Assembly: GCA_017453285.1 (NCBI GenBank)
Contig: JAFTKL010000008.1
Location: 14,434-78,433, forward strand
Direction of reading: 5' to 3'
Length of the DNA: 64,000 nt
From: Clostridia bacterium
GTDB taxonomy: Bacteria > Bacillota > Clostridia > Oscillospirales > CAG-272
Positions 15,843 to 64,000 of the stretch are shown here, one piece after another. The notes below the pieces were generated by a model. The model was given only the letters and a program-made list of their open reading frames with translations. It had not been told where the DNA came from and searched no databases. The position numbers were made by a program, and so were the translations under genes. Position 1 is the stretch's first letter; every line of letters starts with the position of its first letter.

Positions 15843-15912
15843 CACAAACCTTCTAAGCAACCTTGAGGCGAATTTTTCTCTTTTTTAACAATTCTTTGTT
15901 TTATAGAAAATT

Positions 15913-15939
15913 CCGCCTGCCGAGATTTTCGGCAGGCGG
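15913..15939 (-). terminator. Intrinsic terminator after the P-type ATPase (DR2 copy)
   Basis: The same ccgcctgcc/ggcaggcgg hairpin, 28 nt past the ATPase stop. Confidence 0.65.
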
Positions 15940-15966
15940 CGTGTAAATATAAGGTTTGGAGAAAGC

Positions 15967-17817: not shown

Positions 17818-17819
17818 AC

Positions 17820-23978: not shown

Positions 23979-24118
23979 AGCATTTCTCCTTTGAGTCTTG
24001 TAAGAAAATTATAGCATTTTTCTCACGCTTTGTCAACAGAGAAACATTGAGTTTAGCTTTTAACCCAAAAAGGCTGCTTCACTTAGATGCAAAAGTCTCT
24101 AAATGAAGCAGCCCTCTT

Positions 24119-26142: not shown

Positions 26143-26301
26143 AACTAAAAATCCTTTCTTCATTAAATTATTGCTTTTATGATTTGAATTTACAAAAAAT
26201 TAATTTATTTACTTTGTATTTATTATAGCATTTTCTTGAGCGATATGCTATAATAAATATACTGAAAAGTATCAGAAATCTCATCCGGAGGAGCTTTTAA
26301 A

Positions 26302-27192
26302 ATGTCAGAATACTACATTGAAAGTGCAAATCACGAATTAGGAAAATACGGTATAGAATTTTTCTCGGTGCATCCCGAAAGCATCGGCACGGTTACCGCT
26401 CCTCATATACACTCCTCTCTCGAATTTATATACGTAAAGCGCGGAACATTTGAGGTCACGGTCGACAACAGATGCAGGATGACCGTGCAGCCTGAAAGTA
26501 TGCTTGTATTCCGTGCGAACACCATACACACCATCGTTCATATGAACGGATGCGACTCTCTCTACTACGTTCTTAAGGTCGCTCCATCTCTGCTCTTTCA
26601 GAACTTTGGCGGCGACTTGCAGAGCAAATATCTGTTTCCCTTCTTGCAAAAAAGAGCAGATGACGTAGTATGTCTCAGTGAGGCTGAGGTACCCTTAGGT
26701 GTAAAGAGCGTATGGAATGATATGATAGTTGAGGAACGGCAGAATGAGCTATTTTACGTGGCAGAGCGCATCAATGCCTCGCGTCTTTTGCTCGCGCTCG
26801 TACGCTCTGTACTTTGTCCGCAAAGCAGTAGCTGTTTGCAGGATATCAGCGAGCGCACGATCACTCAGATCTACGACACGGTAAACTATATAAACGATAA
26901 TTTTGCATACGACATAACGCCCGTAGAATGTGCCGAGCGCATACATATCAGCTACGGCTACTTTGCGAAGCTCTTCCGCAACGTGATGGGCAAGACCTTC
27001 AAGGAATATCTGCTTGATGTCCGCATGTCGCATGCACATACTATGCTACTTGCAAGCGACATATCTGTCACCGAGATCGCACTTGCGTGCGGATATTCAA
27101 ATCTTTCCTATTTCGTTGCCGAGTACCGCAGAGTTTTTGGACAAACCCCAAAAACGACACGAAAGGAGTCAAAAAGACTCCTTTCGACGTGA
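26302..27192 (+). CDS. AraC-family transcriptional regulator (cupin sensor plus HTH)
   Basis: The C-terminus shows ..ISYGYFAKLFRNVMGKTFKEYLLDVRMSHAHTMLL..ITEIALACGYSNLSYFVAEYRRVFGQTP. Confidence 0.88.
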   Translation: MSEYYIESANHELGKYGIEFFSVHPESIGTVTAPHIHSSLEFIYVKRGTFEVTVDNRCRMTVQPESMLVFRANTIHTIVHMNGCDSLYYVLKVAPSLLFQNFGGDLQSKYLFPFLQKRADDVVCLSEAEVPLGVKSVWNDMIVEERQNELFYVAERINASRLLLALVRSVLCPQSSSCLQDISERTITQIYDTVNYINDNFAYDITPVECAERIHISYGYFAKLFRNVMGKTFKEYLLDVRMSHAHTMLLASDISVTEIALACGYSNLSYFVAEYRRVFGQTPKTTRKESKRLLST

Positions 27193-39861: not shown

Positions 39862-40209
39862 CTTCACAATTAAAATGAAAAAGAAACACGCGGTGGGTTG
39901 TCCGTCCGCGTGTTTCTACATCGCTTTTGTATTAAATTACAAATCGGGGATGTCGCTTTGGTTTACAATATCCCAAATCACCTTAGGGAATATCGGTGTG
40001 ATTTACGAATGCCCCCTACACCAACACCCGCAGGAAGTTCTTTTGATTTTCAAGTCGGCGCGTCCTGCGGACGATGAAGCCGACTTGAAAATAGGAAAAA
40101 ACAAGGAGTATTGGGCACGCGCTACGCGTTCGTGCTCAAGACGACTATGTTTTTGACCGAATTCTTTTCTTTCAAGAAAAGAACAGAAAAAACTCACTTC
40201 AAGCTAACT
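39862..40209 (-). repeat. Structured intergenic module, copy A (carries a ~115-bp internal insertion)
   Basis: It aligns to 46025-46250, apart from an extra hairpin-rich segment at 40049-40163. On the minus strand it begins at the stop codon of the metallophosphoesterase gene. It ends in a 12-bp-stem hairpin (39882-39917) followed by a T-run. Confidence 0.8.
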
Positions 40210-41032
40210 AAACCAGCGTTATCTCGCGGGCATATCCGTGATAGCCGCCCGCGGTCGTGATCTGTATCGCGCCGCCGGGGAGCTTCTCTTCGAAATTGAT
40301 ATGCGTATGTCCCGTTACGATAGCCTTTATCTGCGGCTCGCTGTTAATATACTCTATCGCGCGCAGAGTCACCTCGTCGGGTGACTGCTGACGGTCTCTG
40401 TCGGACGGATATTTGTCCGTATACTCGCGCGGTGCGCCCATAAGGAAAGCGCACTTGTTGCCGTTCGCAAGTATCTGATCCGCCTGCGCTCTCGTAAAGA
40501 GCGGAATGTGAAGGCCAAGCACGATCGGATATCCGCGTGCCGCCTCGGCACGAAGCAGCTCGATCTGTCCTTCGGTCATAAGGTAATAGGAATCATCAAG
40601 CGTTACGAAGTTGACTCCGTCGATCACACGCGAGTAGAAATAGAGGTTGTTGGGCAGGTGGGGCGCGGAATATTTTATTCTCTCCCACTTGTATGCGTAA
40701 TCCTCTTTAGCCTTGCCGACGAAATGGCAGAAATCGTGATTTCCCGCCGCGTATATGGTATCGGTCGAGAGAAGATATTTGTCCGCAAAAGCAAAATTGC
40801 TCTCTGTATGCGCGTCAAGCAGATCTCCCGTGTTGAGCATCGTAAGTCCGTTCTCCTTGGCATACGCGCAAGTCTGATGGAAATACTCCTCAGCGTTCGA
40901 AAAATACTTAAATCTTCCGCGCTCGTCGCCCTCGTCGTCAAGCGCGATATGTGAATCGGTAACGTGAAGCACCTTCACCTCGTGACCAAGTCCGATGTCT
41001 ACCGTCGTCTTTAATATTTTAAGCTCGGGCAT
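40208..41032 (-). CDS. Metallophosphoesterase (calcineurin-like)
   Basis: It shows the motifs VLHVTDSH, NTGDLLD, AAGNHD, GLHIP and TGHTH. Confidence 0.85.
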   Translation of the reverse strand: MPELKILKTTVDIGLGHEVKVLHVTDSHIALDDEGDERGRFKYFSNAEEYFHQTCAYAKENGLTMLNTGDLLDAHTESNFAFADKYLLSTDTIYAAGNHDFCHFVGKAKEDYAYKWERIKYSAPHLPNNLYFYSRVIDGVNFVTLDDSYYLMTEGQIELLRAEAARGYPIVLGLHIPLFTRAQADQILANGNKCAFLMGAPREYTDKYPSDRDRQQSPDEVTLRAIEYINSEPQIKAIVTGHTHINFEEKLPGGAIQITTAGGYHGYAREITLV

Positions 41033-42165
41033 CAGTCAATTCTCCATTTCGTGTAAAGTATCGACGTGCGCAGATCGTCGCCGTAAGGCTGATAGTAAAC
41101 TGTTACGAGCGATCCGTCGGCAAGCTCTGTCGTCGCAGGATAGCCGAGGTCGCCGTTGCGAGCGTCAGAGAGGATGAATTCCTCGCTGAAGGTGCGACAG
41201 CCGTCATAGCTGACTACCGCGCGAATGCCGAAGGGCGCACTTCTTCTGCCGTAGGTGACGAGTATCGAGCCGTCCTTGCGCAGAAGCAGGTGCGGAGGCG
41301 AGCCGATCTTGCCGAGGCTCCAAAGCTCGCTCCAGGTCTTTCCTCCGTCCTTGGACGAGGTGAAATATACTCCGAAATGATCGTATGCGGGATCGTCGTG
41401 CGCGCGGATCGCGACTATGATCTCACCGTCGGGAGTCTCAACGAGGTGAGGCTCGCAGAGATCCTTGTTTGCCGCGCCGTTCTTGCCGGGGAGCTTGGAT
41501 ACGTACTCCCAGCTCTCGCCGCCGTCAAAGCTCTCGTAAAGGAAGAGAGCCTCTCTGTCCTCTACAGGTGTCGTATCGGCAGAGTCGTCAAAATCATTGC
41601 TGTATCTGTTGGGAAGTCCGGGGAATTCGCGACCGACGTAGAGAAGTCTGCCGCTGACCGTCTTGACAGGTCCGTGTGGTGCGGAAACGACGGTCTTTAT
41701 GGGGTCTCCCCAGGTCTTGCCGTAGTCGTTCGAAATTCTGATAAACGAACCCGCTCTGTCCTGCTCGGGAGTATAGGTCTTGTAAGCCTCAAGGAAGCCC
41801 TCAAGCAGCGGCTTGAACTCGTCCTCAGCGTCGCCTACTATCCAATTTCTCCATATACCTTGATATATTACTGCAGGGTGATTGAACCAGGAGACGATCA
41901 TTCGTCCGTTGCCAAGATAAGTAAGTCCTGCATCTCTGTCGTCAAGCCAGGTGTCGTTGATGATGCTCGGCACGCTCCAGGTCTCGCCGCCGTCGGTCGA
42001 CGTGAACATCAGATCCTTACCAAACGTGCAAACGTGAGACGAGCGGTGTCCCGAGCAAGCGGCGTAGAGCACGCCGTTCTCGTCCTGAGTCACGGTCGGC
42101 CACGCCTGATAGCGAAACGGTCCCTCGTTTACTCTGTATACAATTCCCTTTTTGATTATCTTCAT
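41032..42165 (-). CDS. BNR/Asp-box six-bladed propeller protein (sialidase-fold, GH33-like), leaderless
   Basis: It has four Asp-boxes: STDGGETW, SNDYGKTW, SFDGGESW and SKDGGKTW. Its stop overlaps the start of the downstream phosphoesterase (TGATG). Confidence 0.75.
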   Translation of the reverse strand: MKIIKKGIVYRVNEGPFRYQAWPTVTQDENGVLYAACSGHRSSHVCTFGKDLMFTSTDGGETWSVPSIINDTWLDDRDAGLTYLGNGRMIVSWFNHPAVIYQGIWRNWIVGDAEDEFKPLLEGFLEAYKTYTPEQDRAGSFIRISNDYGKTWGDPIKTVVSAPHGPVKTVSGRLLYVGREFPGLPNRYSNDFDDSADTTPVEDREALFLYESFDGGESWEYVSKLPGKNGAANKDLCEPHLVETPDGEIIVAIRAHDDPAYDHFGVYFTSSKDGGKTWSELWSLGKIGSPPHLLLRKDGSILVTYGRRSAPFGIRAVVSYDGCRTFSEEFILSDARNGDLGYPATTELADGSLVTVYYQPYGDDLRTSILYTKWRID

Positions 42166-51435: not shown

Positions 51436-52605
51436 ATGAGAAGAAAATTCAAAAGATTTTGCACTCTGGCGCTCGCGCTTCTCCTGCTTGGTGCCCTGAT
51501 CCCGTCAGGCAGAGAGAGGCTCTCAAGCATAGCCGCCTCGGTCAGCGACGCGTTCTCGCAGAGCTTTGACGCTGACGACTACAGAGAGGTCATGATCGAG
51601 CCCGACGTGCTCACGGGCAGCGGCTACGCAACGCTGACCAAGAATGAGCTCAAGTCTCTGCGCCTCTACCCCGGCGGCACACCATTCGGCGTGAAGTTTA
51701 TGACCGAGGGCGTGCTCGTGGTCGGATTTTGCGACGTCGACACGAGCTCGGGACGCGTAAATCCCTCGAGCAACGCGGGGCTCTCGGTAGGCGACCGCAT
51801 AATCTCGCTCAACGGCAAGAGGATCTCAGGATCAGCCGAGCTCTCGCAGATAGTCGAGAGCAGCGCGGGCAAGAGCATCTCGATCGTCTACCGCCGCGGC
51901 GGCAGCGAGCACACCGCAACACTGACTCCTGCCTATTCGGTCAGCGAGGGCTGTTATAAGACCGGCGCGTACGTCAAGGACAACGGCGCGGGCATCGGCA
52001 CCGTGACCTATATCCTGCCAAACTCGCTTGAGTTCGGCGGACTCGGACACGGAATCTGCGAGGGCGACGGCGGTAAGCTCGTGCCTATCTCGCGAGGATC
52101 GGTTGTAAACGTCGGCATCGACGGAGTTGAAAAGGGCGAGTGCGGCAACCCCGGCGAGCTCCGCGGACACTTCAAGTCGGGCAAGAGCGGCTCGCTTTTG
52201 CAGAACACCGACTGCGGCGTGTTCGGCGTTCTCGCATCTCTCCCCGAAGGGCTCCCGAGCGAGCCGCTCTACCTTGGTCTGCGAGAGGACGTAAAGGAGG
52301 GGCGCGCGTATATCTGGTCAACGCTTGAAGGATGCGTACCGAGAAAATACGAGATCGAGATATCGAACATCGACCGAAGCGCCACCGCAGGCAAGTGCTT
52401 TACCGTCAAGATCACCGATAAGGATCTCATCGCAACGAGCGGCGGCATCGTTCAGGGAATGAGCGGCTCGCCGATAATCCAGAACGGCAAGCTCGTCGGA
52501 GCCGTCACGCACGTTATGATCAACGATCCCACATCCGGCTACGGAATATTCATCGAGAATATGCTCAATGCCGCGCAGAGTCAAGTAATGCCCAAAGTTG
52601 CTTAG
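51436..52605 (+). CDS. spoIVB: Stage IV sporulation protein B (S55 signal peptidase)
   Basis: It has an N-terminal anchor and a PDZ-like region (GLSVGDRIISLNG). The S55 catalytic region reads GIVQGMSGSPIIQNGKLVGAVTHV. Confidence 0.9.
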   Translation: MRRKFKRFCTLALALLLLGALIPSGRERLSSIAASVSDAFSQSFDADDYREVMIEPDVLTGSGYATLTKNELKSLRLYPGGTPFGVKFMTEGVLVVGFCDVDTSSGRVNPSSNAGLSVGDRIISLNGKRISGSAELSQIVESSAGKSISIVYRRGGSEHTATLTPAYSVSEGCYKTGAYVKDNGAGIGTVTYILPNSLEFGGLGHGICEGDGGKLVPISRGSVVNVGIDGVEKGECGNPGELRGHFKSGKSGSLLQNTDCGVFGVLASLPEGLPSEPLYLGLREDVKEGRAYIWSTLEGCVPRKYEIEISNIDRSATAGKCFTVKITDKDLIATSGGIVQGMSGSPIIQNGKLVGAVTHVMINDPTSGYGIFIENMLNAAQSQVMPKVA

Positions 52606-52648: not shown

Positions 52649-53416
52649 TTATTTATAATTTTTCGGAGAAACGCCAAAGCGTTTCTTAAACTCCCGCGAA
52701 AAATGACAGGGCTCGGCATAGCCGCACATCTGCGCCGCCTCGGCGACACCCACCTCACCCGAGGATAAAAGCTGCTTTGCGTACTCCATTCTTAGCGATA
52801 TCATATACTCCTTTGGACTTACTCCAAACTTTTTTTCAAATACTTTCCGCAAATAGACCTCGCTCACTCCGCAAAGCTGAGCAAGATGCGACACACTCAG
52901 ATCATTATCGGTAAATCGAGCATCAAGTGCCGCTACTGCGGGCAAAATTTTTCGCTCTGTTTCCTTGCCAATATACTGCTCTGAATTCTCCTGCCCCCTG
53001 TGTATACTTTCATATAGCGCGACCATTGCCGCGGCGCTACGCGCAGGCGACTGTCGCATCCACTCGTCGCACGCAATCTTGAAACTCCTGCGCAGCTTAT
53101 CCCTACCCTTGGGCTTTAAGCAAAACGGCTCGTCCTCGATATCTGCCTCAAAGTTGATGGCATGGCAGCCGCCCCTACGTACGTCTTTTACAAAATACGA
53201 CGAGCCACGTGGCAGATAGAAAAGGCAACCGCCCTCGGTGCGCATAACTCTTCCGTCAGAGAAGAAATAATCCTTGACGGCATCATCGTCATTTATCACG
53301 AAGCCGTGATACGCTCTGTTCTTATGTGCGCTTTTTCCGCCACCTGCCGGTACGTATACTGCACCGCACACACAAAAAATAACGGTATCCTTCCATTTAT
53401 CGATCATTTTCATCAC
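52649..53416 (-). CDS. AraC-family transcriptional regulator
   Basis: It has an N-terminal cupin-like domain. The C-terminal HTH pair reads LAQLCGVSEVYLRKVFEKKFGVSPKEY ... AAQMCGYAEPCHFSREFKKRFGVSP. It is divergent from the GRE gene. Confidence 0.85.
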   Translation of the reverse strand: MMKMIDKWKDTVIFCVCGAVYVPAGGGKSAHKNRAYHGFVINDDDAVKDYFFSDGRVMRTEGGCLFYLPRGSSYFVKDVRRGGCHAINFEADIEDEPFCLKPKGRDKLRRSFKIACDEWMRQSPARSAAAMVALYESIHRGQENSEQYIGKETERKILPAVAALDARFTDNDLSVSHLAQLCGVSEVYLRKVFEKKFGVSPKEYMISLRMEYAKQLLSSGEVGVAEAAQMCGYAEPCHFSREFKKRFGVSPKNYK

Positions 53417-53530
53417 CTCGGATATATTATATATTTTTGTTTCGATTTTGTCAAGTGTTTTCTTTTATTCATTTACTAATAAATCTTCATATGATATAAT
53501 TAAGCAAAACCCAAAGGAGAGATTTCAGGT

Positions 53531-55753
53531 ATGTATATGATCAAAAATGAAGATTACGAATATATCAGAAACAAATATCACGATACTTCGCGTCCGTTTG
53601 ATCCTTTTAATAGATTTATCCGCCGCGACGACCTTTTTTCATCGGAAACGGGGATGGATCCCGATCAGATCCTTGCGCATATACCCGTGCAGGACGCCGA
53701 GCACGCGAGAGAGAGCCATCCCGTAAGAAAGGCATACGCGTTGTCATTTGTTTTGAAAAACACAAGAATTTCCTGCGATCCACGTGATATTTTCCCCGCG
53801 ATCAATATGGTAGACAGACCGCTCCGAGAAGCTCTCATTGAAAAATGGAAAAAGGAGATCTTCACGAACTTTATCCCGGAGGTTGCTGCAAGGCGCGCTC
53901 AGCTTGAGAATGACGGCATCGTAACTATGTGGCTGGATTATGACCACAGTGTTCCTGTTTGGGATCGCATTTTCGAGGTGGGCTTTGAGGGACTTTTGCG
54001 CGAAAGCGAAGCTGCGCGTGCGAACAGAGAGCTTTCGCCTGAGCAGAATGATTTTTTTGAGGGTATCCGGATCACCTACGAAGGAGTGCTTACTTTTTTG
54101 GAGCGTCTCTCTGTACTCGCAAGCAATACCAAGGGTTCTGAAAAAATGGCGGCGGCGCTTAAAAACATCCGTCACCGTCCGCCGAGCACCTTTTATGAGG
54201 CGCTTCTTACCGTGTACCTTTATTTTATGATAAGCGAGCATATCGATTGTCTTCAGGTACGCTCTCTGTCGAATTTTGACAGACTGTTTTTGCCTTTTTA
54301 TCAAAGTGATTTGACCAACGGCGTTAGCGAAGAAGAGATTCGGGCAGACCTTGCGTATTTTTTGATGCAATTTACCGCTATCGGCAATTATTGGAATCAA
54401 CCGATCTTTCTCGGCGGAGAGAATGCTGACGGCTCTACGGTAATAAGTGAGCTTTCATATCTGTTTTTGGACGTCTATGACAAAATGAAGATCTATAATC
54501 CAAAGGTGCAGATAAAGGTGTCCGATAGCACACCCAAGTCTTTTTTGCTCCGCGCGCTTGATATGATACGTCACGGACACAACAGTATTGTATTTGTGTG
54601 CGACAACACGATGCGCAAAGAGTTGATGCTCGCGGGCGCGAGCGAGGATGAAGCGCGTCTTTGCAACGTGACAGGCTGCTACGAATATTCGCTTCGCGGC
54701 TCTTACGGCACGGGAATGAACTATTCAAACCTCTTAAAGCCCTTGGAATACACCTTGCACGAGGGGCGCGACGGAGTTACGGGAGTAATGGCAGGACTTC
54801 CTTGTCCGCCTGCTTCGGAGTATGAAAGCTTTGATGAATTCTATGCGGAATATAAGCGTCAGCTGAAGAATTTGATAGATATCACGACTGCAGTCAACAA
54901 CTCGTACGATGAATATCTTTGCGAGATCAATCCTCTGTCCTTTCTCTCGGCAACCTTCCCAAGCTGTATCGAGCGCGCAAGAGATGCGATAGGCGGCGGT
55001 GCCGTTATGAACAACACCACGATGGCATTCGGTTTTATTGCCGATCTCGCCGATTCTCTTACAATGCTGCAAAAATATGTTTTCGAGCGCAAAGAACTTA
55101 CACTCCCCGCATTTGTTGAGATGCTTGATCACAATTTTGAAGGAAATGAGAATTTCCGCGCAAAGCTGCGCGCAGACCGCGAAAAATACGGCAACAACAA
55201 AGAGCGTCCCGACGCCTTTGCAACCGATATCGTGAATTTTATCATTGAAACTATCGGAGACCGGCCGAACAGCGAAAAACGCGGAGGCAAATGGGGAGCC
55301 AGCTTCCACGTTGCGCGTATGAGCTACACACAGGGCAAGCTTACAGCTTCCTCACCAAACGGCAGACTTTACGGAGAAGAGCTTTCAAAAAATCTCTCGG
55401 CGTCTATGGGACAGAACCGCGAAGGAGCAACAGCAGCCATTCTTTCCGTCACGAAGATCGACGCTACAAAGATACGGTGCGACGCGCCGCTCGACCTCGG
55501 TCTGCTCCCATCGGCAGTCAAGGGAGAGGACGGTCTTGAGGCAATGTACGGTCTGCTTATGACCTTCTGCAGACGCGGCGGCCATGCGATCCATATCAAT
55601 GTGTTTGATGCCGACACCCTCCGCGATGCACAAGCGCACCCCGAAAAATATCAGGACCTGCAGATAAGAGTCTGCGGTTGGAACGTGCTATGGAATAACA
55701 TAAATAAAGAAGAGCAGGACGGATTCATCCGTCAAGCGGAGGCACTTATATGA
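53531..55753 (+). CDS. Glycyl radical enzyme (PFL2/dehydratase-like), substrate unknown
   Basis: The C-terminal glycyl-radical motif is IRVCGWNV (Gly codon at 55676-55678). The Cys-loop is NVTGCYEY (Cys codon at 54677-54679). It is followed by an overlapping activase gene. At 740 aa it is shorter than the roughly 800-850-aa GREs I know. Confidence 0.85.
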   Translation: MYMIKNEDYEYIRNKYHDTSRPFDPFNRFIRRDDLFSSETGMDPDQILAHIPVQDAEHARESHPVRKAYALSFVLKNTRISCDPRDIFPAINMVDRPLREALIEKWKKEIFTNFIPEVAARRAQLENDGIVTMWLDYDHSVPVWDRIFEVGFEGLLRESEAARANRELSPEQNDFFEGIRITYEGVLTFLERLSVLASNTKGSEKMAAALKNIRHRPPSTFYEALLTVYLYFMISEHIDCLQVRSLSNFDRLFLPFYQSDLTNGVSEEEIRADLAYFLMQFTAIGNYWNQPIFLGGENADGSTVISELSYLFLDVYDKMKIYNPKVQIKVSDSTPKSFLLRALDMIRHGHNSIVFVCDNTMRKELMLAGASEDEARLCNVTGCYEYSLRGSYGTGMNYSNLLKPLEYTLHEGRDGVTGVMAGLPCPPASEYESFDEFYAEYKRQLKNLIDITTAVNNSYDEYLCEINPLSFLSATFPSCIERARDAIGGGAVMNNTTMAFGFIADLADSLTMLQKYVFERKELTLPAFVEMLDHNFEGNENFRAKLRADREKYGNNKERPDAFATDIVNFIIETIGDRPNSEKRGGKWGASFHVARMSYTQGKLTASSPNGRLYGEELSKNLSASMGQNREGATAAILSVTKIDATKIRCDAPLDLGLLPSAVKGEDGLEAMYGLLMTFCRRGGHAIHINVFDADTLRDAQAHPEKYQDLQIRVCGWNVLWNNINKEEQDGFIRQAEALI

Positions 55754-56571
55754 CCGCAACAATATTTGAAATCAAACGCTTTGCCGTCCACGACGGCGAC
55801 GGGATACGAACTACGGTATTTTTCAAGGGATGTCCACTGCGTTGCGTGTGGTGCCATAATCCCGAAGGACTTTCGGCAAAGTATGAGGTTGGCTTTTATG
55901 AGCACAAATGCATAGGCTGCGGTGAATGCAAAAAAGATAATTTTGAGGTTTCGGACTGTCTTGGCAATGCGCGTGTAGAATACGGTAAGGAAATAAGCGT
56001 TTCCGAGATTTTGCCCCTGCTACTTGAAGATAAGGAATTCTACGATAATTCAGAAGGCGGTGTTACCCTTTCAGGTGGCGAATGTCTTATTCAAGCCGAC
56101 TTCTGCGCTGAACTTTTGAAGGAATTAAAAAGGCTGGGCATCCATACCGCCGTGGATACCTGCGGTTTTGTATCAAGAAATGCTTTAGACAAGGTCATTC
56201 CATACACCGACGTATTTCTTTACGATGTCAAGGCATACGACGAGGATGTACATATCAGATGCACGGGGGTATCGAACAAACAAATACTTGAGAATTTGAA
56301 ATCTTTGAATATGCTGGACAAGAAAATTGAAATTCGCATTCCATACGTTCCCGACTATAACGACGGTCAGATTGAGAAAATTGCTTGCTTTCTCGCCCCT
56401 CTCAAGAACATCACAAAAATACGTGTATTACCGTATCACAATTATGCGGGATCAAAATATGAAGCATTGAACCTTCCGGACGCACTTCCAAATAGATTGC
56501 CCACGGACGAAGAAATAAAAATAGCCGCAGAAAAGATAAAAGTTATCACAAATTTTGTTGTCATTTCTTGA
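55750..56571 (+). CDS. Glycyl-radical-enzyme activating enzyme (radical SAM)
   Basis: It shows CPLRCVWCHNPE (CxxxCxxC) and an extra ferredoxin-like CIGCGECKK. An ATGA overlap couples it to the GRE gene. Confidence 0.9.
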   Translation: MTATIFEIKRFAVHDGDGIRTTVFFKGCPLRCVWCHNPEGLSAKYEVGFYEHKCIGCGECKKDNFEVSDCLGNARVEYGKEISVSEILPLLLEDKEFYDNSEGGVTLSGGECLIQADFCAELLKELKRLGIHTAVDTCGFVSRNALDKVIPYTDVFLYDVKAYDEDVHIRCTGVSNKQILENLKSLNMLDKKIEIRIPYVPDYNDGQIEKIACFLAPLKNITKIRVLPYHNYAGSKYEALNLPDALPNRLPTDEEIKIAAEKIKVITNFVVIS

Positions 56572-56670
56572 AAATATGCTCGCGGCGGCGTAGTTCTAAT
56601 AAAAATAATCCCTTATATAGCCTGCAAGGAGTTATATAAGGGATTATTCTCTTATTTGGGATGACAATTT

Positions 56671-57801
56671 TTATTCTTCAAAAATCACTCGATTTATGAA
56701 AATACTGTTATCGCTGCCGTATTTTGCGCACGCGTCCCAGCCGTGCGGATCGTTCTGCATCCACTCAGCCGCGTAGATATAGCCCTCGCTTTCGGAATAT
56801 GACTGACAGCCGAAGTTCCCGAGCCGCGCGCCTCTCTCGGCGACCGCGATCTGCTCGGTCGAGCGGATGACGCACATTCTCTCGGGATCGAATTCGGCAA
56901 TAAAGAGCGGTGCGCGGTGGCGGAAGATGTGGTCGTTCACACCCGCTCTACGCGTGTAGACGAGCCAGAGTTTGCCGCCGCCCGTCAGCCAATGCTGCTG
57001 GGTGTTGTAGTTACCTATATTCTCGCCGTCGTCAAAGCAGAGCTCGCGCGCGTCCTCGAAATGCAAGCCGTCAGAGCTTTTGGTAACAAATCCCGTCACG
57101 TCGTTGCGCAGGGTGAGGAAATATTCGTCCTTATGCTTTATTATCGACGGTTCGTCAAAGCCGCGCGGAACGTCAATGCTGAGCGCGTGCCCTATCTCGA
57201 TCACGCGTATGCTCCCGCCGTCAAACGAGCAACGCATCACGGCGGCATCCGAGCAAGCGTCACCTCCTGTGCACTTTTCGTAGGAGCGGTAGTATATCGG
57301 GATAAGCAGCTCGCCCGACTCGGTCTCGAGTATCTGCGAGCATCCCGCGCCTGCCGAGAAGTATGCCGCCTCGTCGGGCATCACGACGCTCTTCCATTTC
57401 CCGAAATCCTCACGCTCCTCGTCGTACACCGCATACGCGGTGCTCCTCGGGCGAGGATCCTTTAATATTTTATTATCCGCGCCGTAGACTACGGTATGCC
57501 CCGTGAGAATGATCTTGCCGCTCTTTTTGTGGTAAAACGGAGTCGCGTCGCTCATCACAACACTGCTACCGTCGGCAAAATATCTGCGAGCGAGTCCTCG
57601 GCAAAGCTTGGGGGCTGAGTAGCTCTTACCGCCGTCACGTGTGATCACTATCTCAATTCCGCTAAAGACGTCGCAACCCGAAATATCAAGCTTCTGCATC
57701 GTGACGATTCCGAAGCCGCAGGGCATCATCAGCCCTCTCGCGTGCACGTAACAGCGATCCTTTTCGCATTCCCATCTTACAGATCTGTTTTCTATTCTCA
57801 T
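56671..57801 (-). CDS. Hypothetical protein, possibly a sialidase/BNR-like beta-propeller (tentative)
   Basis: The start was moved to MRIENRSVRWE, which makes an ATGA overlap with the upstream AraC gene. One Asp-box-like TRDGGKSYS is present, and the composition looks beta-rich. The family call is weak. Confidence 0.35.
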   Translation of the reverse strand: MRIENRSVRWECEKDRCYVHARGLMMPCGFGIVTMQKLDISGCDVFSGIEIVITRDGGKSYSAPKLCRGLARRYFADGSSVVMSDATPFYHKKSGKIILTGHTVVYGADNKILKDPRPRSTAYAVYDEEREDFGKWKSVVMPDEAAYFSAGAGCSQILETESGELLIPIYYRSYEKCTGGDACSDAAVMRCSFDGGSIRVIEIGHALSIDVPRGFDEPSIIKHKDEYFLTLRNDVTGFVTKSSDGLHFEDARELCFDDGENIGNYNTQQHWLTGGGKLWLVYTRRAGVNDHIFRHRAPLFIAEFDPERMCVIRSTEQIAVAERGARLGNFGCQSYSESEGYIYAAEWMQNDPHGWDACAKYGSDNSIFINRVIFEE

Positions 57802-58637
57802 TTTGATCCTCTCTTTCTGTACTCGCTCGGAGAAACTCCGACGCATCTTTTGAACACGTTTGCAAAATAGGTCGAGTCGCAAAATCCGACAGAGAGCGCG
57901 ATCTCGGTCACGCTGAGTGACGAATAGCGCAAAAGCGTTTTCGCATCCTCTATCCTCAGCTCGCAAAGATACTCACGAAAGCTCTTGCCCGTGCTCCTCT
58001 TGAAGCTGTGGCTTATAGAAGAGCGACTGCAAGCGAATTCCTTGCATATATCCTCAAGCGTGATATTCTGCGTGTGATAGCGCTTTACGTAGCGCAGTAT
58101 TTTGCCCATCATCCCCTCTTCGTGTGTCGCAACACCCTCGGTGCGCAGATACGCAAGCTCGAGCATACTGCAAAGCGGCTGCACCAGCGTGTCGATGTAT
58201 TCCTTTGGCGGCATCTCTACCTTGAGACTTTGATATGCCTCACACAATCTCTCTTCGGGTATGTGGTAGGTCTGCGCCGTTCTTTTGATAAACGAGTCGG
58301 CATTCTCCGTGCGATATCCGCTGACCGAGATAAATCCGACCGTCTCGTGTCCGTTACTTATCGGGTATACGTACTCCGAAACACCCGCGAAGCACCTGCC
58401 GCAAAACGAGCCCTCGCGGCAACGCCCACGCACCTTGCTCTGCCGCTCGATACAGTGCTTTTGCGCGCGCTCGAAGGTCTTGATGTAAACACAATAGGGG
58501 TTGTCGTGAATATTGAAGGTGATAAGGTCGCTCAGACTTATCAGCGACTCGTTGCCGTATGGGTGAAGCGTGAGCGAGAGTCCGCACTCGCTCCGCAGAT
58601 AAAGTATGTAATTTTTTATGTCTTTTGTGTCGTACAT
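57798..58637 (-). CDS. AraC-family transcriptional regulator with a Cys-rich N-terminal sensor domain
   Basis: The C-terminal HTH reads ..LEDICKEFACSRSSISHSFKRSTGKSFREYL..VTEIALSVGFCDSTYFANVFKRCVGVSPSEY. The start is at MYDTKD (RBS AAGGAGAG). Confidence 0.85.
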   Translation of the reverse strand: MYDTKDIKNYILYLRSECGLSLTLHPYGNESLISLSDLITFNIHDNPYCVYIKTFERAQKHCIERQSKVRGRCREGSFCGRCFAGVSEYVYPISNGHETVGFISVSGYRTENADSFIKRTAQTYHIPEERLCEAYQSLKVEMPPKEYIDTLVQPLCSMLELAYLRTEGVATHEEGMMGKILRYVKRYHTQNITLEDICKEFACSRSSISHSFKRSTGKSFREYLCELRIEDAKTLLRYSSLSVTEIALSVGFCDSTYFANVFKRCVGVSPSEYRKRGSK

Positions 58638-58738
58638 AGTCTCTCCTTGCACGTTTTTACATAAATACAGCGCATAATCTAAGGAATACAGACTGTTTTT
58701 GTGCTATCATTATACCATAAGCTTTAGGAGGTTTCAAT

Positions 58739-60013
58739 ATGAAATACGAAATTGATCTGAAAATAAATTCGAGCTACGACGTTATCGTGGTAGGCTCGGG
58801 TCCTGCGGGAGTAGCGGCGGCTATCAGCTCGGGAAGAAACGGAGCGAGCACTCTGCTTATCGAGAGCTGTGGCAGAGTGGGCGGCATCTCGACCTCGGGA
58901 ATGATGAGTCATTTCACGGGCAGATGCGGAAATCCGCTCTACCGCGAGATACTGCAAAGATCCGCCGACAAGAACTATTTTGCGCCGGGCGAGGTTACGA
59001 AATACATTGACCCCGATATGCTCACGCTGACCTATATCGAGATGCTCGAGGAGGCGGGAGTAAAGACTCTGCTCTACACCACGTTCTGTGACGTTATGAT
59101 GGATGGCGAGAAAGTCACGGGTATCATCTGTCACTCAAAGGACGGATTTTCTGCTTTTGGCGCGAAGATCGTAATCGACGCGAGCGGAGACGGCGACGTA
59201 GCTTACAAGAGCGGTGCGGAATATATCAAGGGACGCGAGAGCGACGGCAAGATGCAGCCCGCAACGCTGATGTTCAAGGTCGGCGGAGTTGATATGGAGC
59301 GCGCGGTATTCCCCGGCTCGTTTGAGACGCTCGTTCCCACCGAGCGCGGAGAGCTTCAGGCGCTCGCAAAAGAGATACTTCCCCACCCCGCAGGTCACGT
59401 TCTGCTCTACCGATCGACCATCCCCGGCATCGTAACCTGCAATATGACCAACGTAACCGATATCGACGGCACTTCTGCCGAGGATCTGACACGCGCGGAG
59501 ACCGTATGCCGCAAGCAGATACCGCGCATAGTCAAATTTCTGCGTGAGTACGTCCCGGGATACGAGAACTGCTATATCATAGGCTCCGCATCGCTTATGG
59601 GAATTCGCGAGACAAGGCACTTCAAGGGAGTAAGCACCATAACCGAGCAGGAGATCTCTGCGGCAGCTCAGCACGAGGACGCGGTGGTGTTTGACGCACA
59701 CTTCAATTTTGACGTTCACAACATCACGGGCGCAGGACTTGATAAGACGGGCTGTCAGAAAAACTTCAAGCAACAGAACGGCTACACCATTCCTTACGGC
59801 TGTCTCGTTCCCGAGAGGATAGACGGACTTCTGCTCTCGGGCAGAAATATCTCGGGTACGCATATGGCACACTCTAACTTCCGAGTAATGCCGATATGCA
59901 TCGGCATCGGCGAGGCTTGCGGAGTCGCGGCGGCTCTCGCATCGAAAAGCGGCAGACAGCCGCGAGAGATAGATGCCGCAGAGATACGCGCGGTAATACT
60001 TAAAGAGATATGA
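58739..60013 (+). CDS. FAD-dependent oxidoreductase (FAD_oxidored/GIDA-like)
   Basis: It shows YDVIVVGSGPAGVAAAISSGRNGASTLLIE (GxGxxG plus acidic end). The RBS is AGGAGG. Confidence 0.8.
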   Translation: MKYEIDLKINSSYDVIVVGSGPAGVAAAISSGRNGASTLLIESCGRVGGISTSGMMSHFTGRCGNPLYREILQRSADKNYFAPGEVTKYIDPDMLTLTYIEMLEEAGVKTLLYTTFCDVMMDGEKVTGIICHSKDGFSAFGAKIVIDASGDGDVAYKSGAEYIKGRESDGKMQPATLMFKVGGVDMERAVFPGSFETLVPTERGELQALAKEILPHPAGHVLLYRSTIPGIVTCNMTNVTDIDGTSAEDLTRAETVCRKQIPRIVKFLREYVPGYENCYIIGSASLMGIRETRHFKGVSTITEQEISAAAQHEDAVVFDAHFNFDVHNITGAGLDKTGCQKNFKQQNGYTIPYGCLVPERIDGLLLSGRNISGTHMAHSNFRVMPICIGIGEACGVAAALASKSGRQPREIDAAEIRAVILKEI

Positions 60014-61062
60014 TTAGAATTCACGGTGATTTTATCGGCGGAAACATCCGCGTAAGTGAGATATACGGCGATAGAGTCTTGCTCCAAAACGAGCTTCGCG
60101 ACACGGTCGGCGATTGGTTCTATTGGGCATTCTGCGTCGAGGGCGCAGAGGGGCGCGAGCTGCGCTTTGAGCTTGGACAAAACCGCATCGGATACTTTGG
60201 ACCTGCAGTAAGCTATGACCTTTGCGAGTGGCATTGGCTCGGCAAGTGCGAGGGCAACTCATTCGTATACCACTTTGGCGAGAACGAAAGCCGCGTATAT
60301 TTTGCGCATCATATGCTCTACCACCCCGCGCGCTTCTTCTCGCTCTGTCAGCGGCTCGGACTTCAGACAGACGAGCTCTGCAAGAGCCGCAAGGGGCGCA
60401 GCGTTCCCTGCCTCTATATCGGTGAGGGCAAGCGCAGTATTATCTTTTGCGCGCGCCACCACGCCTGCGAGTCAACGGGCAGCTACGTCATGGAGGGCAT
60501 TATTGAAGAGCTGGCAAGCTCTCCTATCGAGAACGCGCGCTCTCTCTTCGTTCCGTTCGTAGATTTCGACGGAGTGGTCGACGGAGATCAGGGGAAAAGC
60601 CGCTATCCGCACGACCACAACCGCGACTACACGGACGAGCCGCTCTACCCCGAGGTGCGCGCCATCTGCGAATATCGTGAAAAGCACGGCTCCACACTCG
60701 GCTTTGATCTTCATTCCCCTTGGCACAAGGGCGGAGTCAACGACAAGATCTTTGTCGTGCGCAATATGTGCGAGAAGGCTCACAGATTTGACGAATTCTC
60801 GGCTCTGCTCGAGTCCGAGATCACCGAAAGCTCGATGAAATATTCGCACACCAACGATTTCCCACCGCTCACCGCCTGGAATCAGCCGAGTGCGAATTTT
60901 GCCTATACGACAAACTCTCGCCCCGATTGCCGCCTCGCCTTCTCGCTTGAGAGCGCGTATTTCGGCACCGAGGACGATCGCGTATCGGGCGCGAAGCTTG
61001 TCGAGCTCGGCAGATGCTTTGCAAGAGCGGTCAAAAAATACTTTTTGGAGGCAGAGATATGA
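60010..61062 (+). CDS. M14-like zinc carboxypeptidase-fold protein (tentative)
   Basis: It shows an HxxE motif (ARHHACES) and a downstream NRDY. ATGA overlaps couple it to both flanking FAD genes. Confidence 0.5.
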   Translation: MIRIHGDFIGGNIRVSEIYGDRVLLQNELRDTVGDWFYWAFCVEGAEGRELRFELGQNRIGYFGPAVSYDLCEWHWLGKCEGNSFVYHFGENESRVYFAHHMLYHPARFFSLCQRLGLQTDELCKSRKGRSVPCLYIGEGKRSIIFCARHHACESTGSYVMEGIIEELASSPIENARSLFVPFVDFDGVVDGDQGKSRYPHDHNRDYTDEPLYPEVRAICEYREKHGSTLGFDLHSPWHKGGVNDKIFVVRNMCEKAHRFDEFSALLESEITESSMKYSHTNDFPPLTAWNQPSANFAYTTNSRPDCRLAFSLESAYFGTEDDRVSGAKLVELGRCFARAVKKYFLEAEI

Positions 61063-62747
61063 GAACACTTGAATATAACGTGGATCTTTGCGTTGTCGGC
61101 GGTGGAATGTCGGGACTCTGCTGTGCGATAGCCGCGGCGCGACACGGCATAAAGGTCGCGCTCATCCAGGACAGAGCCGTGCTTGGCGGAAATGCGTCAA
61201 GCGAGATCAGAATGTGGATAGGCGGAGCGCACGGCAAGGATAACCGCGAGGGCGGCATCATCGAGGAGATCTTCCTTGAAAACTTTTATCAGAACCCCTC
61301 TCTCAAATATCCGATATGGGACAGCGTACTCTATGAGAAGGCAATACTCGAGGAAAATATCACTCTATTGCTCAACTCCTCTTGCCTTGATGCTACGATG
61401 GATAAAAACAGGATCGTCAGCGTAAAGGCGTGGCAGTCGAATGCGGAGACCTTTCACGTGGTACGCGCCAAATATTTTGCAGACTGCTCGGGCGATTCCA
61501 TCCTCTGCCCGCTGACGAATGCCGAATATATGTACGGCAGAGAGGCAAAGGCGGAGTTTGGCGAGAGTATACCGCCCGACGTGGCAGACAAAAAGACTAT
61601 GGGAATGAGCTGTCTGTTTCAGATCCGCGAGACCGATCACAAGGTCGAATTCACTCCGCCATCCTGGGCATATAAATACGAAACTGATGCCGATCTGCCC
61701 TACAAGGATCACAACAGGGGCAACAACTTCTGGTGGATAGAGATCGGCGGCGAATGGGATTGCATCCACGACACCGACAAATGCCGCGATGAGCTTCTGA
61801 AGATATGCTACGGCGTTTGGGATCATATGAAAAACCGTGGCGAGCACGACGTTGACAATTGGGAGCTTGAGTGGATAGGATTTTTGCCCGGCAAGCGCGA
61901 GAGCCGCAGATATATCGGAAAATATATAGTCACGCAGAACGACGTTGAGGCGGAGGGACGCTTTGACGACATAGTTGCCTACGCAGGCTGGACTATGGAC
62001 GACCACTTTCCCGAGGGCTTTTACTACCGTGCAGGGCATCCGACGATCTATCATCCCGCACCACAGCCCTGGGGACTTCCTTTGCGCTGTATGATCTCGA
62101 AAAATATCGAAAATCTCGTATTTGCGGGCAGAAATATCAGCGTAACACACGCCGCGCTCTCTTCCTCGAGAGTTATGGCGACCTGCGCTATTCTTGGTCA
62201 GGCACTCGGTACGGCGGTGGCTCTTGCGACAGAGAGCGGCAAAAGCGTCGAGGACGTGGACATCGCAAAGCTACAACAGACTCTTATGGAGGACGACTGC
62301 TACATTCCGTGGCACCGCCGCGAGCTGCCTGCTCTTACGAAAAACGCATACTGCAGCGCAGAGATCGTGCGCAACGGGCTTGACCGCGGAGAAGAAAATC
62401 TCTGGATCGGCAAAGAGGGTGAGGGCATCGAATATATCTTTGACGGCGACGTTGACCTGCAGGAAATAAGATTGGTATTTGATAACGATATGAATAGAAA
62501 ATATCACAATATGCCCTGCAATTATCCGCTGATCCAGGATAAATTCAAGCTTCCGCGCACGCTCATAAAGGAATATATACTCGAGGGCGAGGACTCGGAG
62601 GGCAACAGCTTTAACATTCACGTCACCGACTCGTATCAGCGATTCGTAAGACATAACGTCGGCAAAAAGGTCTGCCGCCTGCGCTTTATCCCCCTCTCCA
62701 CCCACGGAGCAAAGGATTTCAGGCTTTTCTCATTTGAGGTACGCTGA
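61059..62747 (+). CDS. FAD-dependent oxidoreductase (FAD_oxidored-like)
   Basis: The start was moved to [49 protein letters not shown]. Confidence 0.8.
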   Translation: [562 protein letters not shown]

Positions 62748-62825
62748 GAGCCTTCATTTGTAACAAATTGTTAACACACTACTCTCTCGCTTTGTGATAT
62801 AATTAAAAAAACGGAGGTGGCGGAT

Positions 62826-64000
62826 ATGACTGATCACGAATTGTTTTTATCAATAAACGAGCCTTTTGCAGCAGGTCTTTTTGAACTTGAGGGCGCGTCG
62901 CCCATGATCCGATTTGCCAACGCGCTCAAGCGTTTCTGGGAGAGCGCGGCTCTTCCGCCCTACGCGAGCGGCAGACTCTACCCGTCGGGCAGAAATATAT
63001 TCACCTTTAGCGGAGAGTACGCAGTAAAGCCACACAACTCTAACGTCTTTGAGGTCAATTGGTCTCTGCTCTCGTCCAAGAGCGAGAGAGCCTGCGAGCT
63101 TATGCGCGCCGAGTACGACCTCGTCTTTAAATTCTACGGCAATCCGCACACGGTCGGAGGAATGGGCTGGACTCACTCCTTTCCGAACTACACAAGAATT
63201 CTTCGCGACGGGCTCTCGGGCTACGAAGCGAGGGTAAGCGCGCTCGAGGATGGCGACTTCAAGCAGAGTCTGCTGATACTGCTTGAGGGAATAAAGCTCT
63301 ACCGCGCGCGCTGTCTTGAGCATCTGAGAGAGCAGAATGCGCCGAGCGAGCTTATCTCGGCTCTGCAGAGAATGCCCTACGAGACACCGAAGAGCTTTTA
63401 CGAAGCGCTAATCTCGCTCAACTTCTGCTATTATCTCGACGGCTGTGACGACATCGGACCTATCGACCGCACGCTCCTGCCCTACTACAAGGGCGAGGAC
63501 ATCGACGAGCTGGTCGGACTCTTCCGTGAGTTTTTCAAAAACGTAGACGTAAACGACGGCTGGTCGGGCACACTCGGACCTGAGTACAACGAGCTGACGC
63601 GCGCCGCTATCCGCGCGATAAAGAACGGACGGCGACCTAATCTTCAGCTACTTGTCACAAAGGATATGCCCGATTGGGTATGGCAGGAATGCGCCGACAC
63701 GCTCTCAAGCAGCTGCGGTCAGCCTGCGTTTTACAACTATGCGCTCTACACCGAGCGTCTGCGTCTGCTGATGCCCGACGTACCCGAGGAGGATATGCGC
63801 CGCATAGCCTTCGGCGGATGCACCGAGACTATGTTCGAGGGGCTCTCGAACGTCGGCTCGGACGATGCGGGCATAAACACCGCGCTCGTGCTCTCGGACT
63901 ATATGCGCCGCGAGCTTGCGAGCCGCGATAGCTACGAGGACTTCTATCTTGGCTACGTGGAAGAGCTGAGGCGGGTTATTGCCGAGGTTGAGGATCTCGT
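62826..64000 (+). CDS. Second PFL-like / glycyl-radical-enzyme-family protein, 5' part (runs off the right edge)
   Basis: Manual translation from the ATG at 62826 (RBS GGAGGTGG) gives MTDHELFLSINEPF... The frame stays open to the window end. It shows P.SFYEAL, SCGQPAFYNY and FGGCTETMFEG (a GCxE Cys-loop), paralogous to 53531-55753. It is absent from the ORF track because no stop lies in the window. Confidence 0.7.
   Translation, partial: MTDHELFLSINEPFAAGLFELEGASPMIRFANALKRFWESAALPPYASGRLYPSGRNIFTFSGEYAVKPHNSNVFEVNWSLLSSKSERACELMRAEYDLVFKFYGNPHTVGGMGWTHSFPNYTRILRDGLSGYEARVSALEDGDFKQSLLILLEGIKLYRARCLEHLREQNAPSELISALQRMPYETPKSFYEALISLNFCYYLDGCDDIGPIDRTLLPYYKGEDIDELVGLFREFFKNVDVNDGWSGTLGPEYNELTRAAIRAIKNGRRPNLQLLVTKDMPDWVWQECADTLSSSCGQPAFYNYALYTERLRLLMPDVPEEDMRRIAFGGCTETMFEGLSNVGSDDAGINTALVLSDYMRRELASRDSYEDFYLGYVEELRRVIAEVEDL

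Follow-up and report, generated by a model that had tools for sequence, protein, structure and literature searches.

Glycyl radical enzymes (GREs) with a Cys-x-Glu (CxE) loop lie behind important reactions of the gut, including the conversion of choline to trimethylamine, the dehydration of hydroxyproline, the cleavage of sulfonates and the opening of anhydro-sugar rings. The loop motif defines the eliminase/isomerase branch of the GREs, and whole GRE clades are still without validation according to a review of June 2026 (PMC13450708). Two GREs with this motif, here named GRE1 and GRE2, are encoded in the last 11 kb (positions 52,649 to 64,000) of a 64,000-nt stretch of a Clostridia bacterium genome (GenBank assembly GCA_017453285.1, contig JAFTKL010000008.1), referred to below as the window. 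The original prediction for this region, made from the sequence alone, was a single cluster and pathway in which a propeller protein (PROP), an M14-like hydrolase (M14L) and two flavoproteins (FAD-ox A and FAD-ox B) accompany the two GREs. Our analysis favours a different reading, to which we assign a probability of roughly two in three, namely that these 11 kb, from an uncultured spore-forming member of the Clostridia in a herbivore gut, combine three independent catabolic cassettes under AraC regulation and do not encode one pathway. The first, AraC1/GRE1-AE1 (AE denoting an activase), would be a self-contained inducible unit conserved in hundreds of species-level genomes; the second, comprising AraC2 (with PROP) and FAD-ox A, M14L and FAD-ox B, would be an independent flavoprotein/metallohydrolase operon under a PocR-type sensor; and the third, GRE2-AE2, would be a second GRE unit with its own activase.

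The described systems closest to these enzymes are HypD, the glycerol and propanediol dehydratases, and YbiW and PflD of Escherichia coli. The trans-4-hydroxy-L-proline dehydratase HypD (PDB 6vxc/6vxe) resembles GRE1 in its PFL-like ten-stranded barrel, its Cys loop (GCVE, versus GCYE in GRE1), its RVxG glycyl loop, a tyrosine (Tyr450) aligned with GRE1 Tyr398, and an activase gene immediately downstream, whereas GRE1 is ~50 residues shorter, has no pyrroline-5-carboxylate (P5C) reductase neighbour, gives a PDB match of just 240 bits, and occurs with an AraC regulator, joined in its relatives by lactonase, transporter and esterase genes. The B12-independent glycerol dehydratase and propanediol dehydratase (PDB 1r8w and 5i2a) share with GRE1 the CxE loop, a histidine (His164 of glycerol dehydratase, GD, the proposed general acid, aligned with GRE1 His139) and the same proposed direct-elimination chemistry, but Asp447 and Tyr640 of GD are replaced by Gly395 and His593 in GRE1, which also has no shell or aldehyde dehydrogenase genes beside it. 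These pocket comparisons are based on phmmer alignments to HypD and GD only, with HypD numbered via the 20-residue tag offset of chain 6vxc_A. They also align GRE1 Gln242 with HypD Asp278, a residue said in the HypD structural paper to touch the leaving hydroxyl, and all three GRE1 residues are family-invariant. YbiW and PflD open the rings of 1,5-anhydroglucitol 6-phosphate (AG6P) and 1,5-anhydromannitol 6-phosphate (AM6P) in ‘anhydroglycolysis’; as CxE-type GREs acting on sugar derivatives, they show that the eliminase/isomerase branch is able to cut a carbohydrate ring C-O bond. Their identity to GRE1 and GRE2 is, however, 23-27%, and the E. coli loci hold phosphotransferase system (PTS) components, a sugar phosphatase and an aldolase, none of which is found in the GRE1 cassette. 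The pflD operon of E. coli K-12 (L172, 4143995-4148317) adjoins yijO, a putative DNA-binding regulator which we take to be of the AraC type, a class that its record does not state, and this arrangement parallels the AraC/GRE-AE layout.

Both GREs have the predicted GCxE Cys loop (GCYE in GRE1, GCTE in GRE2), and C383-Y-E385 of GRE1 and C332-T-E334 of GRE2 are invariant in 12-member family alignments. GRE1 His139 is likewise invariant, with a histidine in the same column of GRE2, PflD and YbiW, and the two GREs together with two other local GRE families keep the CxE loop, this histidine and RVxG. The remaining motifs read in the original prediction were located at residues 219 (STFYEAL), 382 (GCYE) and 713 (RVCGW, containing the key Gly716) of GRE1, and at 189 (KSFYEAL), 298 (GQPAFYN) and 331 (GCTE) of GRE2, the radical glycine of which (Gly641) lies past the window end. 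Calling the two enzymes paralogs is accurate at the superfamily level, but not in any closer sense, as they are only ~22% identical.

Neither GRE clustered tightly with a characterised one, as had been anticipated. The NCBIfam model scores of GRE1 were 286.9 bits for HypD (NF043068; cutoff 1100), 198.9 for the choline TMA-lyase CutC (1050), 203 for HpsG and 194 for HpfG (1000 each), which belong to the C-S lyases and dehydratases, and 224.5 for the formate C-acetyltransferase model PRK09983 (1109), the best curated of its kind. GRE1 was also below the decarboxylase GRE models, with scores lower than that for HypD, and reached 298.8 bits against a cutoff of 678 for TIGR01774, which describes the broad PFL2/glycerol-dehydratase subfamily. 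GRE2 gave no HypD match and a best PDB match of 128 bits, and its fragment stayed under threshold for YjjI (TIGR04040, 21.5 versus 498 bits; PF11230, 22.2 versus 23). Labels of family members are generic (‘hypothetical protein’, ‘pyruvate formate lyase family protein’, ‘formate C-acetyltransferase’). The June 2026 review (PMC13450708) names no such enzyme as GRE1 or GRE2, and the literature linking GREs with sialic acid or rumen yielded no paper on either clade. On sequence grounds we place GRE1 and GRE2 in two uncharacterised clades, because neither comes anywhere near the level of any curated GRE model or any solved GRE.

Gene neighbourhoods were compared across 80 GRE1 loci taken from a one-genome-per-species collection, in which 253 stretches encode a relative, and 80 GRE2 loci taken from metagenomes, with both sets searched by tblastn with all window proteins. 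Homologs of AraC1 were located divergently upstream of GRE1 in 74 of the 80 loci from other species, and AE1 was downstream in 59; PROP and M14L were found in none of the 80, FAD-ox A-type genes in nine, FAD-ox B-type genes in three and GRE2 in three. The GRE2 loci contained AE2 in 18 cases, PROP in two, FAD-ox in two and M14L in none. Neighbouring genes are thus not co-conserved with the GREs, an outcome that the original prediction had itself named as speaking against its single pathway. No GRE was present in the 8-10 kb examined in four of the five other FAD-ox/M14L contexts (L165, L167, L168 and L174), and in the fifth (L175) a GRE lies at a distance of 8.5 kb. AraC1, GRE1 and AraC2 each have a promoter-like site of their own in front. 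The GRE1 unit is beside spoIVB in 12 GRE1 loci, the FAD-ox/M14L unit is beside spoIVB in L174 (4782-9283), and in the window AraC1/GRE1-AE1 and PROP stand between spoIVB and AraC2. In the window, both the GRE1 and the FAD-ox/M14L units look to have been placed at one chromosomal spot, and these cassettes seem to have landed repeatedly in the DNA downstream of spoIVB.

All genes of the predicted order (AraC, GRE1-activase, propeller-AraC, FAD-ox-M14-like-FAD-ox and GRE2, on the strands given in Table 1) were recovered from open reading frames (ORFs) and Pfam/NCBIfam scans, and the ATGA overlaps were checked on the sequence at all four junctions (GRE1/AE1, AraC2/PROP, FAD-ox A/M14L and M14L/FAD-ox B). 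With all ORFs from 52.6 to 64 kb accounted for, this region contains no microcompartment shell, aldehyde dehydrogenase, sulfite reductase or P5C reductase gene, in agreement with the prediction. An ORF upstream of AraC1 (51436-52605) resembles SpoIVB, and its L174 counterpart bears Peptidase_S55 and PDZ domains; this gene identifies the window as belonging to a spore-forming Firmicute. The nearest relatives of every protein here are from metagenome-assembled genomes of uncultured Clostridia/Oscillospiraceae, with sheep, goat, deer, yak and buffalo gut as the named sources.

Table 1. Features of the 11-kb region, in window coordinates
Feature	Position	Strand	Description
AraC1	52649-53416	-	AraC/XylS-family regulator; HTH_18 E=1e-21 and HTH_AraC
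Divergent promoter-like sites, AraC1/GRE1 intergenic	53426-53500	both	Consensus matches only
GRE1	53531-55753	+	740 aa; PFL-like (PF02901) E=9e-94, Gly_radical (PF01228) E=4e-21
AE1	55750-56571	+	Radical-SAM GRE activase; TIGR02494 290.8 bits vs cutoff 174
PROP	56671-57801	-	376 aa; six-bladed beta-propeller, sialidase (GH33) fold
AraC2	57798-58652	-	AraC-family; HTH_18 E=4e-25, PocR sensory domain E=1.6e-10
FAD-ox A	58739-60013	+	424 aa; PF12831 FAD_oxidored E=9e-105, 351.8 bits vs cutoff 27
M14L	60010-61062	+	350 aa; cytosolic-carboxypeptidase-like (M14D-type) zinc hydrolase fold, N-terminal beta-sandwich
FAD-ox B	61059-62747	+	562 aa; PF12831 E=2e-85, 288.1 bits vs cutoff 27
GRE2, N-terminal 391/663 aa	62826-64000 (window end)	+	PFL-like E=9e-15 on fragment

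The GRE1 family comprises 856 matches at E<1e-30 with a uniform length of 734-750 aa, and relatives occur in at least 253 species-level genomes, those from different species being 53-86% identical to the window protein. Consensus matches in the AraC1/GRE1 intergenic region include TTGACA-17-TATAAT on the minus strand (53454-53426, 12/12 positions) and a plus-strand site (53472-53500, 10/12) with a TG extension. AE1 has the motifs CPLRCVWC at residue 28 and one CIGCGEC. Its auxiliary-cluster region consists of a single motif (CIGCGEC and one later Cys), with an insert ~20-25 residues shorter than that of the model, and activases of this type may hold a single auxiliary [4Fe-4S] cluster. The window’s GRE1 subclade has the minimal form AraC1/GRE1-AE1. 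Around a quarter of GRE1 loci have same-strand genes inserted between GRE1 and AE1, and a Pfam scan of 103 same-strand operon partners returned EamA (18), SGL (SMP30/gluconolactonase-like; 17), SASA carbohydrate acetylesterase (10), GDSL esterase (7), glycoside hydrolase family 2 (GH2; 3) and further GREs (3). The closest solved relative of the SGL partner is regucalcin/SMP30, a lactonase (E=2e-27), and the top curated match of the EamA partner, under cutoff, is a carboxylate/amino acid/amine transporter model. One locus contains a GH20-type gene. Another, different GRE is present within 10 kb in ~16 of the 80 loci, indicating that these bacteria keep ‘GRE islands’ of at least four mutually distant families.

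GRE2 is cut by the window end and was completed through an exact-protein look-up with FAD-ox B, which led to a 4.9-kb contig (L001) differing from the window at 4 of 1301 aligned nt; the 562-aa FAD-ox B called on L001 is an identical product. The complete GRE2 has 663 aa, PFL-like and Gly_radical domains and the glycyl loop VVRIGGFSEYF (VRIGGF at 638). AE2, a radical-SAM activase (L001:4036-4863) with CNLRCAWC (CX3CX2C) and two ferredoxin-like CxxCxxCxxxC motifs, begins 2 nt past the GRE2 stop, so that the predicted presence of only one activase holds inside the window but not beyond it. The order M14L-FAD-ox B-GRE2-AE2 is repeated in two further strain contigs. Rightward extension by the same look-up reached three contigs (L001, L176 and L177), all ending inside AE2. 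These are independent metagenome assemblies of this species that end at nearly the same AE2 position, which suggests a repeat or strain-variable junction immediately downstream. The gap separating FAD-ox B from GRE2 contains an imperfect inverted repeat at 62757-62776, TTGTAACAAATTGTTAACA, which lies just upstream of an extended -10 element, TGATATAAT, and may be an operator site.

The GRE2 family (942 matches at E<1e-20) is very uniform in length at ~660 aa. Its closest relatives to the window protein (75-79% identity) are arranged as AraC/GRE (706 aa)-GRE2-AE2-Imp-YgjV-GH2, followed by a convergent 376-aa gene 64% identical to PROP, with SASA, PfkB, a DHDPS/NAL-like aldolase, a BNR/GH43-like protein and an AraC/GRE (733 aa)-AE unit nearby. 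Two of these regions (L162:7812-12824 and L164:7812-12826) carry the 706-aa GRE and the 663-aa GRE2 in tandem behind one AraC gene with only one activase after them, and the pair may act sequentially or share the activase. At 62-69% identity, GRE2 relatives adjoin an NAGLU-like protein, GH36, GH20, PGA_cap and PF12831 genes, and short-chain dehydrogenase/reductase (SDR)-GRE-AE units.

The FAD-ox/M14L operon faces AraC2, beside which a promoter-like site at 58737-58709 matches the consensus at 11/12 positions with TG. A PocR-type AraC regulator occupies the same divergent position in L165, L174 and L175, as well as in L004, L007 and L035; the divergent AraC of L167/L168 has no PocR match on record. 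Both PF12831 proteins score above the gathering threshold of the Pfam model and have a GxGxxG dinucleotide fold. FAD-ox A has no solved close homolog, its PDB matches covering the Rossmann N-terminus only, and the PF12831 literature consisted of flavoproteome lists, with no functional paper or characterised member found. Homologs of FAD-ox A at 53-77% identity occupy the same operon position in L165, L167, L174 and L175. FAD-ox B has a C-terminal extension of ~140 aa, homologs at 78-79% identity in L035 and L167, and a 562-aa PF12831 counterpart at the same operon position in L175; its longest ORF starts at 61014, and gene callers used the ATGA-coupled start at 61059.

M14L has no Pfam match above threshold (PF00246, 15.6 versus a gathering score of 21.6 bits; Pepdidase_M14_N also sub-threshold), although some members of its family (2372 in total) bear precomputed PF00246 or PF18027 matches. 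The predicted M14-like fold is nevertheless borne out by a sequence match to PDB 4a37 (E=6e-7), an AlphaFold2 (AF2) model with a predicted local distance difference test score (pLDDT) of 87.5, and Foldseek matches to 4a37 and 4b6z (E=1e-21, template modelling (TM) score 0.79-0.80) and to 3k2k (TM 0.8). Residues H151-A-C-E154 (HxxE), N204-R205, H235 and E314 are invariant in 24 sequences and were assigned to carboxypeptidase A positions by motif order, not by structural superposition. M14L is most like the bacterial cytosolic-carboxypeptidase-like M14 enzymes (4a37, 4b6z and 3k2k), followed by eukaryotic CCP5, in combining an N-terminal beta-sandwich with an M14 domain and in keeping the HxxE...H zinc ligands, the N-R substrate-binding pair and the catalytic Glu; it differs from them in its 17-22% identity and its setting between two PF12831 flavoproteins under a PocR-AraC regulator. 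Contexts drawn from the family include PocR-AraC/FADox-PGA_cap-M14L (L165), SpoIVB followed by PocR-AraC/FADox-M14L (L174), AraC/FADox-PGA_cap-M14L-FADox (L167/L168), PocR-AraC/FADox-PGA_cap-M14L-FADox (L175) and, as a sixth context, M14L alone among GH31, GH63, GH2 and GH29 genes (L166). The PGA_cap (CapA-like) gene between FAD-ox A and M14L in most relatives (L167:6597-7718, L165:6886-8004 and L175:6800-7918) is absent from the operon of the window. Its product weakly matches MslH, the lasso-peptide C-terminal Trp epimerase (E=2.5e-10, far under cutoff), and one may speculate that PGA_cap and the cytosolic-carboxypeptidase (CCP)-like enzyme perform peptide C-terminus or gamma-glutamyl chemistry.

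PROP has no Pfam match above threshold, no BNR_2 match and no apparent signal peptide, and a sequence-only PDB search gave no match; its fold was recognised through a family profile and an AF2 model. A full-library HMMER search returned 672 family clusters at E<=0.001, and the resulting profile matches pneumococcal NanA sialidase at E=9e-7 and other GH33 sialidases at ~1e-6. The AF2 model has a pLDDT of 95.1, and its top 50 Foldseek PDB matches are all sialidase/BNR propellers (probability 1.0, TM 0.6-0.7), in accordance with the predicted sialidase-like propeller. Among multidomain family members, 17 of 42 match BNR_2, and fusions with GDSL, CE4, SASA or AXE1 esterase domains occur. Residues R231, R283, R293, R295, Y281, E216, E315 and E345 are invariant and D43 is present in 32 of 33 members; the first-blade Arg is conserved in 23 of 33 only. 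The invariant Arg, Tyr and Glu residues are compatible with an Arg triad and a Tyr/Glu nucleophile pair, and sialidase activity is putative. PROP resembles the GH33 exo-sialidases (NanA, NanH and Neu2) in its six-bladed propeller, with one Asp-box-like motif, and in having relatives fused to sugar O-acetylesterases, but it is only 10-15% identical to them and of cytoplasmic size. PROP homologs are close to GRE2 in L082, L100 and L164. The window encodes a second sialidase-like protein (41032-42165, minus strand, 377 aa, BNR_2 E=1.6e-18), of which PROP was considered as a duplicate and rejected, there being no significant similarity; directly downstream of that ORF, sharing one base with it, is a calcineurin-like metallophosphoesterase gene (40208-41032, minus strand).

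Judged from family membership, the radical chemistry of GRE1 and GRE2 would match that of known GRE 1,2-eliminases and isomerases. The activase (a CX3CX2C radical-SAM enzyme) would generate a radical at Gly716 in GRE1 and at Gly641 in GRE2, to be relayed to Cys383 and Cys332, respectively, and the thiyl radical would take a hydrogen from a hydroxyl-bearing substrate carbon. Glu385 or Glu334 of the CxE loop would deprotonate that hydroxyl, and a beta leaving group would depart, either OH (dehydration) or a ring or ether oxygen (cleaving a ring C-O bond, as YbiW and PflD do). The substrates are probably small carbohydrate-derived molecules, a plausible but unproven proposal suggested by the neighbours in other genomes. 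GRE1 may act on a sugar acid, sugar lactone or de-O-acetylated sugar, because in orthologous operons genes for an SMP30-type lactonase, a carboxylate-type EamA transporter and SASA/GDSL acetylesterases are inserted after GRE1 and before AE1, a pattern suggestive of a small substrate of the ester, lactone or sugar-acid type; the EamA partner also suggests that this substrate is unphosphorylated. GRE2 may act on a product freed by glycosidases, because its close relatives adjoin GH2, GH89-like and sialidase-fold PROP genes. The glycan-derived substrate theme of the original prediction has some support, mostly from orthologous loci and little from the genes of the window. A more specific proposal, that GRE1 performs a new carbohydrate-catabolic radical reaction and that GRE2, PROP and glycosidases carry out a second step on a sugar of host or plant glycans, is tentative and, in our estimation, unlikely.

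A number of points weigh against the three-cassette reading and the substrates proposed under it. In the surveyed loci ORFs were called naively, from ATG starts only, and many of the loci are no more than short contigs, so that the counts give a minimum for how often a gene is present. A gap of only 78 nt, with no predicted terminator, separates FAD-ox B from GRE2, which makes their co-transcription possible in this genome, and PF12831 genes lie near GRE2 relatives in L117, L147 and L169, as does PGA_cap in L170. Some functional cross-talk among clustered GRE modules is conceivable. With respect to the substrates, the guesses from gene context are weak: no more than about one-fifth of GRE1 loci have the SGL, EamA and esterase genes, and SGL, EamA, SASA, GDSL, PfkB, YgjV, GH2, PGA_cap and Iso_dh gave no match at E<1e-5 in the 64-kb window. 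Neighbours across the GRE2 family as a whole (35-55% identity) are heterogeneous, which implies that the family is probably multifunctional.

The substrates of the GREs might not be derived from carbohydrates at all, but from amino acids or peptides in the form of a hydroxy compound, or be plant secondary-metabolite lactones or esters imported through EamA. We regard this as unlikely, though a number of features are in keeping with it, including the carboxylate/amino acid/amine transporter model as best curated match of the EamA partner, the ability of SMP30-fold and GDSL/SASA hydrolases to act on non-sugar esters and lactones, the fact that the characterised GRE nearest to GRE1 is an amino-acid dehydratase, and a minimal GRE1 cassette in the window that has no sugar-specific gene. 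GH2, GH20, GH89-like, GH36, PfkB sugar kinase, DHDPS/NAL-like aldolase and sialidase-fold proteins nevertheless recur in the GRE islands, which argues for carbohydrates.

An improbable alternative to three separate cassettes is partial coupling, in which GRE2-AE2 is co-transcribed in this lineage with, and acts downstream of, the FAD-ox/M14L genes under AraC2, GRE1 being separate. The short terminator-free gap and the PF12831 and PGA_cap neighbours noted above would suit this arrangement, as would the lack of an own regulator upstream of GRE2 in the window and the order M14L-FAD-ox B-GRE2-AE2 kept in the strain contigs L176 and L001. However, GRE2 is preceded by a good ribosome-binding site and by the extended -10 element TGATATAAT, which was read by eye; its counterparts in relatives either face a divergent AraC of their own or come after another GRE; and 150 genes immediately next to members of the GRE2 family showed no enrichment of PF12831, which does not figure among the families that recur there.

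A single integrated pathway, in which the propeller, the M14-like hydrolase and the flavoproteins convert a glycan or peptide conjugate to the compounds on which the two GREs act, is in our opinion very unlikely. The genes are physically adjacent here and in near-identical strains, AraC2 and FAD-ox are within 7 kb of GRE1-AE1 in L004, L007 and L035, GRE2 is near GRE1 in L036, and no terminator is predicted ahead of GRE2. Set against this are the absence of PROP and M14L from the 80 GRE1 loci and of M14L from the 80 GRE2 loci, the FAD-ox/M14L operons without a nearby GRE (L165, L167, L168 and L174), an own activase for each GRE and an own AraC for two of the three units, and the FAD-ox/M14L operon of L174, which abuts spoIVB as if the GRE1 unit were an insertion in the window. 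Finally, we give almost no credence to GRE1 or GRE2 being a divergent ortholog of HypD, glycerol/propanediol dehydratase, CutC, IslA/HpsG/HpfG or YbiW/PflD, since, although HypD is the top match of GRE1 in NCBIfam and PDB and the CxE loop and His are shared, the scores are 3-5 times under every equivalog cutoff, the pocket residues differ (Asp278 to Gln242, Asp447 to Gly395 and Tyr640 to His593), identity to PflD/YbiW is as low as stated above, and the cassette has no P5C reductase, bacterial microcompartment (BMC) shell, aldehyde dehydrogenase, PTS or aldolase genes.

Elsewhere in the window, four tandem ~340-aa paralogs (4772-9179) and lipoprotein-like proteins of ~460-490 aa (283-4693 and 11369-14131) match, where scanned, a pectate-lyase-like RHGA/epimerase beta-helix family, the long forms with an additional SAF domain. 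The proteins encoded in 283-14131 seem to represent the expansion of a family of carbohydrate-active beta-helix proteins, some secreted and some cytoplasmic. It is followed by a sharp step in GC content, from 0.37 at 14-16 kb to 0.58 at 16-18 kb (window mean ~0.50), and the interval 14001-18000 may contain a boundary of acquired DNA. A GH63/MGH1-like glycosidase gene (22449-23978) precedes a scanned Gfo/Idh/MocA oxidoreductase (25057-26163), an unscanned ORF also read as Gfo/Idh/MocA (24119-25060) and an ORF with AraC-like similarity in tblastn (26302-27192); together, 22449-27192 may be another AraC-controlled sugar cassette.

The GREs described here are new as members of CxE-type GREs of unassigned substrate, a category in which the field already acknowledges many clades. 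Recognising the flanking flavoprotein/M14 operon as a separate unit spares substrate hypotheses built on the wrong genes, and the arrangement PocR-AraC/PF12831-PGA_cap-CCP-like M14-PF12831 is newly recognised in its own right as a conserved cassette without assigned function. GRE1 is a well-defined discovery target, being a uniform family of broad distribution with a regulator, a usual activase and informative accessory genes. If the proposal of a new carbohydrate-catabolic reaction is true, GRE1 would dehydrate or ring-open an aldonic acid, an aldonolactone-derived compound or a de-O-acetylated sugar that enters by EamA and is prepared by the SMP30-type lactonase and SASA/GDSL esterases, and the enzyme would be widespread among uncultured Clostridia of herbivore guts. 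Along with the neighbouring GRE families of 706 and 733 aa, GRE1 and GRE2 would then form a set of unexplored radical sugar enzymes beyond the two ‘anhydroglycolysis’ isomerases.

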